A program made the position numbers and the translations under genes. The notes beneath the pieces were generated by a model. That model was not told where the DNA came from. It ran no database searches and saw only the letters and a list, made by a program, of their open reading frames with translations. A stretch of DNA of 48,223 bases, from the sequence record PP925837.1. One strand, given 5' to 3'. Shown here in pieces: positions 45 through 57 of the stretch (its first letter is position 1; every line of letters begins with the position of its first letter). The DNA comes from Escherichia phage Turner.

Positions 45-57
45 TTGTTAAAGAGCG
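45..57 (-). promoter_or_regulatory. boxA-like element (CGCTCTTTAACAA on - strand) 13 nt downstream of the cro-like stop; nutR-like position
   Basis: Reverse complement of 45-57 is CGCTCTTTAACAA, matching the rrn/lambdoid boxA consensus; no boxB hairpin seen. Confidence 0.35.

Follow-up and report, generated by a model that had tools for sequence, protein, structure and literature searches.

The rrn antitermination complex is made up of NusA, NusB, NusE, NusG, SuhB and S4, and the rrn boxA makes RNA polymerase resistant to Rho. The put RNAs are the protein-independent antiterminator RNAs of N-less lambdoid phages. The original T7 sequence paper reportedly already pointed out a boxA in phage T7, but established no function for it. 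To our knowledge, only a few natural boxA targets are known beyond lambda-type nut sites and the rRNA operons, notably suhB and the CRISPR leaders. At the suhB and CRISPR leaders, a consensus boxA on unstructured RNA is all that is needed for NusB-S10, SuhB and other Nus factors to load (PMC5725501; PMC7665894), and GYTCTTTAANA is the experimentally derived consensus of a functional boxA in gamma-proteobacteria (PMC5725501). These two precedents are opposed in their effect on Rho. The CRISPR boxA gives Rho resistance (PMC7665894), whereas the suhB boxA, the only characterised one as near to a start codon on an mRNA as the element described below, represses translation and so promotes Rho termination, an effect that holds even when boxA and the Shine-Dalgarno sequence are as much as 100 nt apart (PMC5725501).

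The DNA analysed here (the window) is a complete lambdoid phage genome, circularly permuted and 48,223 bases long, and its closest record is Escherichia phage PhiR34_1 (99.5% identity over the first 2 kb). It carries a lone boxA just past its cro-like gene. By comparison with its homologues, this element is what is left of a nut site, boxA alone, in a lambdoid lineage without N.

Organization of the early region

The immunity region and the early operons of the window contain the following features:

356..328, minus strand: putative PR promoter, TTGACT (356..351), a 17-nt spacer and TAATCT (333..328), amid the operator palindromes ACAACCAT/ATGGTTGT
300..70, minus strand: cro-like gene of the YdaS family, 76 aa, with its TAA stop at 72..70 (Pfam PF15943, 62 bits; phrog_35)
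69..1, minus strand: cro-ydaT spacer on the PR transcript, 69 nt, unstructured, with 15 C and 6 G, holding boxA and the Shine-Dalgarno sequence AAGGAG (12..7)
48223..47684, minus strand: YdaT-family gene, a CII-like regulator of 179 aa (PF06254, 103 bits; phrog_163)
40572..40174, minus strand: Q late antiterminator (PF06530, 181 bits), the distal target of the PR operon approximately 8 kb past boxA
405..1094, plus strand: cI-type repressor (HTH and S24 peptidase)
about 1216..1243, plus strand: intrinsic terminator after cI, CCCGGTCACCGTGCCGGG followed by a T-run
1384..1412, plus strand: putative PL promoter, TTGACG, a 17-nt spacer and TTAAAT
1420..1688, plus strand: PL leader of approximately 270 nt, without boxA, boxB, put RNA or N ORF
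1689..1895, plus strand: kil (phrog_294), with which the recognisable genes of the left operon begin, followed by gam, bet, exo, xis and int

Bases 1 and 48223 are truly adjacent, since the identical 75 nt upstream of the ydaT ATG were found in PhiR34_1 and in 66 viral contigs. The putative PR fell under the threshold of the promoter scan and was read from the sequence only. Past ydaT, the right operon continues on the minus strand with O, P, ren, an SMR transporter, a serine recombinase, nin genes, rusA and Q. Its genes mostly overlap or abut and no strong intrinsic terminator was predicted between cro and Q, so that a need for antitermination in the right operon is not evident. On the left side, homology to phages of other immunity types starts at approximately position 1420.

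Other features were also observed in the window. The slot between cI and PL (1095-1380) holds nothing but the cI terminator here, and in relatives it carries GevT/GevA, a HipA-like pair, RexAB, DUF3800 or BamE-like genes. In the Shine-Dalgarno region of kil, a 1-nt deletion at 1679 (plus strand) gives GGGC-GGAG compared to GGGCAGGAG in five relatives, and an ATG at 1606 (MTTGGHPPPEYAQK...) that is in frame with kil in relatives is out of frame in the window. The deletion could be a real variant, a truncated N-terminal extension of Kil or a sequencing error. Iteron-like repeats (ACCCGAATCAGGTAA and variants) lie at 47140-47270 (minus strand) within the O-like replication gene, as may be compared with the lambda origin, and an OmpC/NmpC-type porin gene is located at 38887-39984 (plus strand) between Q and the lysis genes, on the opposite strand (compare prophage DLP12).

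Sequence and position of the boxA

The boxA 13-mer CGCTCTTTAACAA is the minus strand of 57..45, and the plus strand at 45..57 reads ttgttaaagagcg. It starts at the 13th base past the cro stop, leaving 12 bases between the cro TAA and boxA. The earlier note on this DNA had described a boxA-like CGCTCTTTAACAA 13 nt past the cro-like stop and had placed it at the position of lambda nutR. Its sequence, strand and position were all correct when read again, and the comparison with lambda also stands, as the lambda boxA begins 8 nt past the cro stop. The exact 13-mer was found only once in the 48,223-base window, the runner-up match having two mismatches. The consensus GYTCTTTAANA likewise gave a single match, the perfect GCTCTTTAACA at 56..46 (minus strand), compared to 0.19 matches expected by chance over 96 kb (both strands of the window). 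By arithmetic from this value, the chance of a match on the sense strand of the 69-nt cro-ydaT spacer is approximately 1e-4. Equal matches arising by chance throughout the genome, a case that the note had raised against its own reading, do not occur. A chance match was rejected on account of the uniqueness of the element, the low genome-wide expectation and a position homologous to nutR.

When compared to the boxA of the E. coli rrnH leader (TGCTCTTTAACAA), 12 of 13 bases were identical, or 13 of 14 including the next T. The 14-mer made up of boxA and the T at base 44 was identical to the 14-mer CGCTCTTTAACAAT of the T7 early leader. The boxA shares its strand with cro and ydaT, lies past the promoter region from which cI and cro diverge, and would be transcribed with them. 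It is predicted to be accessible: a 90-nt stretch that begins at the cro stop and runs into the following gene has a folding energy of only -4.1 kcal/mol (z = -0.21), with no stable structure over boxA, and in the fold of the cro-ydaT spacer the predicted pairing of boxA with the Shine-Dalgarno sequence was weak and non-significant. The distance from boxA is 25 nt to AAGGAG and, from the 11-mer, 45 nt to the ATG of ydaT, whose Shine-Dalgarno sequence AAGGAG is strong and has a 6-nt spacing to the start. These findings indicate that the element is most likely a genuine boxA, i.e. an RNA site for host NusB/S10 (NusE), with binding predicted.

Comparison with described systems

The window boxA shares with lambda nutR the same core, the same strand and the same place after cro on the PR transcript. 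The spacing between the cro stop and boxA is 7 nt in lambda, 7-8 nt in homologous prophages and 12 nt in the window. In contrast to lambda, the window has no boxB, N, nutL or tR1-type hairpin or terminator, and its boxA cannot work as an N-utilisation site. The likeness to the rrn boxA extends from the 12 of 13 bases shared with rrnH to a location near the start of a long operon and to an action that is N-independent by necessity, but the window site is on a translated mRNA and not on an rRNA precursor, and no boxC-like GUGUGGG comes after it. As in the suhB 5'-UTR, a consensus boxA is found shortly upstream of a Shine-Dalgarno sequence and start codon on an E. coli mRNA; the suhB site serves Nus-factor autoregulation, whereas the downstream gene in the window is a phage CII analogue. 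The boxA of the Salmonella CRISPR leader also stands alone, without boxB or N, and it protects a long transcript from Rho (PMC7665894). The CRISPR transcript is untranslated, whereas the genes of the window are translated and tightly packed.

In HK022, phiEt88 and UPF_BP1, relatives with homologous cro genes, put RNAs of the HK022/HK639 kind occupy the same genomic positions, after PL and after cro, whereas the window is without a put-like RNA. T7 has the identical 14-mer, no N or boxB, and an operon read by the host polymerase. Its 14-mer is located 62 nt past promoter A3 and approximately 100 nt before gene 0.3, is also present in 19 T7-like contigs and is unannotated in the RefSeq record. 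T7 differs in being a virulent, unrelated phage with the site promoter-proximal in the leader and not after the first gene. In the literature that was searched, nothing was found on an orphan boxA in N-less lambdoids or on the T7 boxA.

A boxA-only element was also observed in Escherichia phage PJNS034 (65.7 kb) at approximately 1165-1220, where a strong promoter-like TTGACA-17-TAAGAT precedes CGCTCTTTAACAA by approximately 12 nt. The non-coding stretch around it exceeds 600 nt, and no neighbour is annotated. A similar, weak hit was obtained in Pantoea phage TacPo2. The occurrences in the T7 early leader, in T7-like contigs and in PJNS034 show that boxA recurs on its own in phage operons that the host polymerase transcribes. 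In the early region of phi80, at approximately 830-845, the PL leader contains TGCTTTTTAACAA, which is a boxA except for a T in place of the critical C4, and viral contigs related to this phi80-type leader have a perfect CGCTCTTTAACAAT in the same conserved leader (..TTACAGCGTCAATGACCTG..).

Search for boxB, N, nutL and put RNA

The earlier note had also reported that no boxB-like hairpin follows boxA and that no credible N gene is present, and both observations hold. No boxB hairpin was found in the window spacer after boxA, in agreement with the fold given above, and a tR1-type hairpin or terminator downstream of boxA was absent. Among 17 early ORFs (PL-proximal and other small ORFs, from both early operons) there was no N-like Pfam or PHROG match, and an N gene is also absent from the annotation of close relatives. 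On the left side, no nutL was found, as no boxA-like sequence within 3 mismatches occurs at 1400-2000, and the fold of the PL leader was unremarkable (z = -0.79). When the whole window was scanned with Rfam at gathering threshold, only IS009 was returned, and an E-value scan of 1-2000 gave nothing credible. This IS009 (RF02111) is a full-length match at 12715-12517 (minus strand), with 226.7 bits compared to a gathering score of 117, and is the only above-threshold Rfam family in the window.

A put covariance model (R1) was built from five HK022-type put RNAs. It recovered putL sites on which it had not been trained, in UPF_BP1 and phiEt88 (74.5 and 68.9 bits, respectively). In the window, the best score was 9.3 bits (E = 2.6), and no put RNA was found in Bievrevirus-like relatives either. 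A put RNA of the HK022/HK639 type was rejected both for the PL leader and for the region after cro, as model R1 gave no match there though it found untrained put sites elsewhere. Near 1440-1690, where the note had proposed a search for boxA/boxB or put-like RNA elements, none was found by boxA search, R1 or Rfam. Nor was there a proper nut site with an N gene elsewhere, as the window contains no nutL, N or second boxA.

An arginine-rich frame at 1486-1887 in the PL leader was considered as N and rejected, since it has no ATG or Shine-Dalgarno sequence and is interrupted by an in-frame TAG in PhiR34_1 and PhiR68_2. Other relatives show mixed substitutions in it, the comparison thus marking the frame as non-coding, and the 1-nt deletion in the window puts it out of frame with kil. 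A 63-nt core at 1569-1631 (plus strand), upstream of kil, was rejected as an antiterminator because, from its positions in phi80 and HK225, it travels with kil and not with antitermination. This core is 97% identical to HK225 and 85% to phi80 and is also found in Enterobacter and Klebsiella phages. It is located past the annotated N gene and terminator in phi80 and just upstream of kil in HK225. Within the core there is a hairpin, AGUCGCUUC-AAC-GAGGCGGCU, in which phi80 shows an apparent compensatory change of G-C to A-U, and a small ORF containing a PPP stretch also begins there.

Origin of the element

Cro homologues were gathered from phage records and from one genome per species. Of 16 enterobacterial cro homologues, eight had a boxA 7-8 nt past the cro stop, and so did Stx phage PA28. 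Besides PA28, these nutR-type loci were from Pantoea, Erwinia, Serratia, Xenorhabdus and Symbiopectobacterium, together with one P22-like locus. They showed a boxB-type hairpin 6-9 nt past boxA, followed by a lambda-cII-type gene. A matching nutL (boxA and boxB in the left operon) was present in all nine nutR-type loci, and an N protein with an arginine-rich motif came after nutL in six of the nine; no N ORF was found within the fetched flank of two Xenorhabdus loci and the Symbiopectobacterium locus. When the window was aligned with seven nutR-type loci, GCTCTTTA was the sole invariant block downstream of cro. The cro gene of the window differs by 30-40% in DNA from every nutR-type homologue, and the 13-mer is intact.

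No boxA was found in homologues with cro directly before ydaT, where the gap is short (HK639, 4A7, Perceval and PhiR68_2, and prophages of Enterobacter, Klebsiella and Kluyvera), and it was also absent from homologues where a short cII-type gene comes after cro. The four phages 4A7, Perceval, PhiR68_2 and HK639 have the same cro-ydaT-O-P architecture as the window, with a cro-ydaT gap of 24-30 nt. An orphan boxA was found in no other N-less cro allele sampled, and a pattern scan of viral contigs for a second boxA and ydaT arrangement gave chance matches only. Among the homologues compared, the window allele is the only one that pairs boxA with ydaT. Recent recombination importing boxA with the 3' end of cro was considered and set aside, the segment identities giving no clear signal.

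Because homologous cro genes in N-encoding prophages have boxA at this place within a full nutR, the window element appears to be a nutR boxA stripped of its partners. Its descent from the nutR of an N-dependent lambdoid ancestor is well supported by this comparison, and the simplest reading is that its missing partners (boxB, the tR1-type hairpin and N) were lost as immunity and replication modules were reshuffled. The suggestion of a relic site in the earlier note is thus supported with regard to origin, as the nutR homologues have boxA at the same place and the window keeps boxA alone.

Distribution of the allele

The cro/boxA allele was present in 1515 of 5426 complete E. coli genomes (approximately 28%). 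It was nearly clonal, with 1466 of the 1515 carrier genomes matching at 99% identity or more. Three spacer haplotypes approximately 5% apart were found, all with a consensus boxA, and this diversity is too low to demonstrate purifying selection. The single boxA change among the haplotypes was GCT to GTT, by which haplotype C has the exact suhB sequence GTTCTTTAACA. Carriers of the allele include phages isolated and propagated on E. coli (PhiR34_1, PhiR47_2, PhiR5_1 and others). The boxA is dispensable, since sibling phages with the same right operon and other cro alleles have none yet were isolated and propagated. To judge from these phages, it is accessory rather than essential.

Function of the boxA

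The reading that we prefer, and to which we give about an even chance, is that this orphan boxA still loads Nus factors independently of N, and that its effect is modest and non-essential, most likely a resistance to Rho. After initiation at PR, RNA polymerase would read cro and then boxA, and the unstructured boxA RNA would be captured by NusB-S10. Together with NusA, NusG and SuhB, NusB-S10 would then form an N-independent Nus complex, as at the rrn, Salmonella CRISPR and suhB leaders, and this complex would remain tethered to the polymerase. The likelier net effect would be a lower sensitivity to Rho over the approximately 8-kb early right operon as far as Q, and damping of the adjacent ydaT translation would also be possible. 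Nus-dependent antitermination by another route, the other suggestion of the earlier note, may operate here.

It is possible, though on balance doubtful, that the element is an inert relic which rode with the cro module after the loss of boxB, tR1 and N, has no effect on phage expression and persists only since the allele is young. The viability of siblings without boxA, the lack of a nutL partner in the window, the restriction of the arrangement to one nearly clonal allele and the failure of orphan boxA to recur in other N-less alleles are all consistent with a relic. However, a perfect boxA on unstructured RNA should bind NusB-S10 regardless of its history (PMC5725501; PMC3177189). The three haplotypes also keep the consensus, the sole substitution being one that preserves it (approximately 12% probability for a random substitution), and the 13-mer has stayed intact though cro has diverged from its nutR-type homologues. 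A different outcome of Nus loading would be an attenuator of the suhB type, in which a Nus complex on boxA would loop the RNA and block the ydaT Shine-Dalgarno sequence, uncoupling would lead to Rho termination inside ydaT, and the CII-like output together with O, P and Q (by polarity) would follow the availability of Nus factors. The 45 nt to the start codon lies within the 50 nt used as a search criterion in the published study (PMC5725501), and the unstructured stretch with more C than G, from the 3' end of cro into ydaT, is comparable to rutA/rutB, which flank nutR in lambda. We regard such an attenuator as unlikely, as lytic growth would suffer from polarity on the replication genes and Q, the Shine-Dalgarno sequence of ydaT is strong, and the locus is missing from the boxA-associated genes published for this distance (PMC5725501). 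The boxA catalogue in the Supplementary Data of that study has no entry at 44-46 nt, and no correspondence with the locus could be established for its E. coli 'cII/C1' entries, which have a distance of 3. More speculatively, and with low confidence, a Nus switch before the CII analogue ydaT may set its translation and the Rho polarity on O, P and Q, tying the choice between lysis and lysogeny to the free Nus pool and growth state of the host; as a further possibility, boxA RNA made from PR may titrate NusB-S10 and handicap N-dependent competitor phages.

Two further explanations are far less probable. The YdaT of prophage CP-933P has its operators in the ydaS-ydaT spacer, where it turns on a leftward PRE (PMC8630535, PMC9986795), and the boxA match might be a by-product of such a DNA signal on the opposite strand, namely an operator or a PRE-like promoter activated by YdaT, or else be due to chance. 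The plus strand has the half-sites TTGACT (3-8), TTGACT (22-27) and TTGATT (34-39), and a weak TTGATT-18-TGAAAT pair would have the complement of boxA as its spacer. A promoter spacer, however, imposes no constraint that would yield 13 of 13 boxA bases, the chance expectation is approximately 1e-4, and in homologous cro modules the corresponding place is taken by a boxA that belongs to a full nut site, so that we consider this explanation very improbable. Least credible of all is a cryptic N-like system, in which the arginine-rich frame of the PL leader (RLRGVRGVKRTRERRCDQ) would act on a boxB-like hairpin, GACTG-ATTAA-CAGTC. Its stretch KRTRERR resembles N-type arginine-rich motifs, and the 5-bp hairpin is found 18 nt past boxA in the minor haplotypes B and C. 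The frame has no ATG, Shine-Dalgarno sequence or family match and, as noted, contains a TAG in PhiR34_1 and PhiR68_2; the PL leader has no boxA or hairpin partner. The hairpin is missing from the window haplotype and its loop is not GNRA-like, and siblings that share the PL leader have neither boxA nor hairpin after cro.

Sequences resembling YdaT sites were observed in two places. Between boxA and the ydaT start (1-40, plus strand), direct repeats AATTGACT occur at 1-8 and 20-27, together with TTGATTG (34-40), and the first repeat reads AATTGATT in a minor haplotype. These repeats are candidate YdaT half-sites or a candidate PRE-like promoter region toward cI. At 42212-42229, a perfect palindrome, TTGATTATCGCAAATCAA, exactly matches the reported CP-933P YdaT operator consensus TTGATT-N6-AATCAA. 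It lies in a non-coding gap upstream of ninB and overlaps a promoter-like TTGATT-17-CATAAT (minus strand). With up to 2 mismatches, the operator consensus gave 8 matches in the window compared to 2.95 expected. When the window YdaT was compared with PDB chains, no sequence match was found at E<=0.001, CP-933P YdaT included. Since it has no match to any solved structure, the CP-933P operator consensus may not transfer to the window, and the operator logic of CP-933P was not adopted for it.

Implications

The orphan Nus-loading site favoured above belongs to a class of signals, boxA, that is among the best understood of bacterial transcription RNA signals. In this N-less lambdoid prophage family, a perfect lone boxA is found in the early right operon, directly upstream of the regulator that replaces CII, in approximately 28% of complete E. 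coli genomes. As inducible phages with the site (PhiR34_1) and without it (4A7, Perceval) exist, its role is testable by simple point mutants. An active boxA would provide a natural example of a phage mRNA on which host Nus factors act in the absence of N. If inert, it would be a record of nut-site decay when immunity modules shuffle between phages that depend on N and phages that do not. In both cases, the lesson is that N-type antitermination should not be inferred solely because a boxA match is present.
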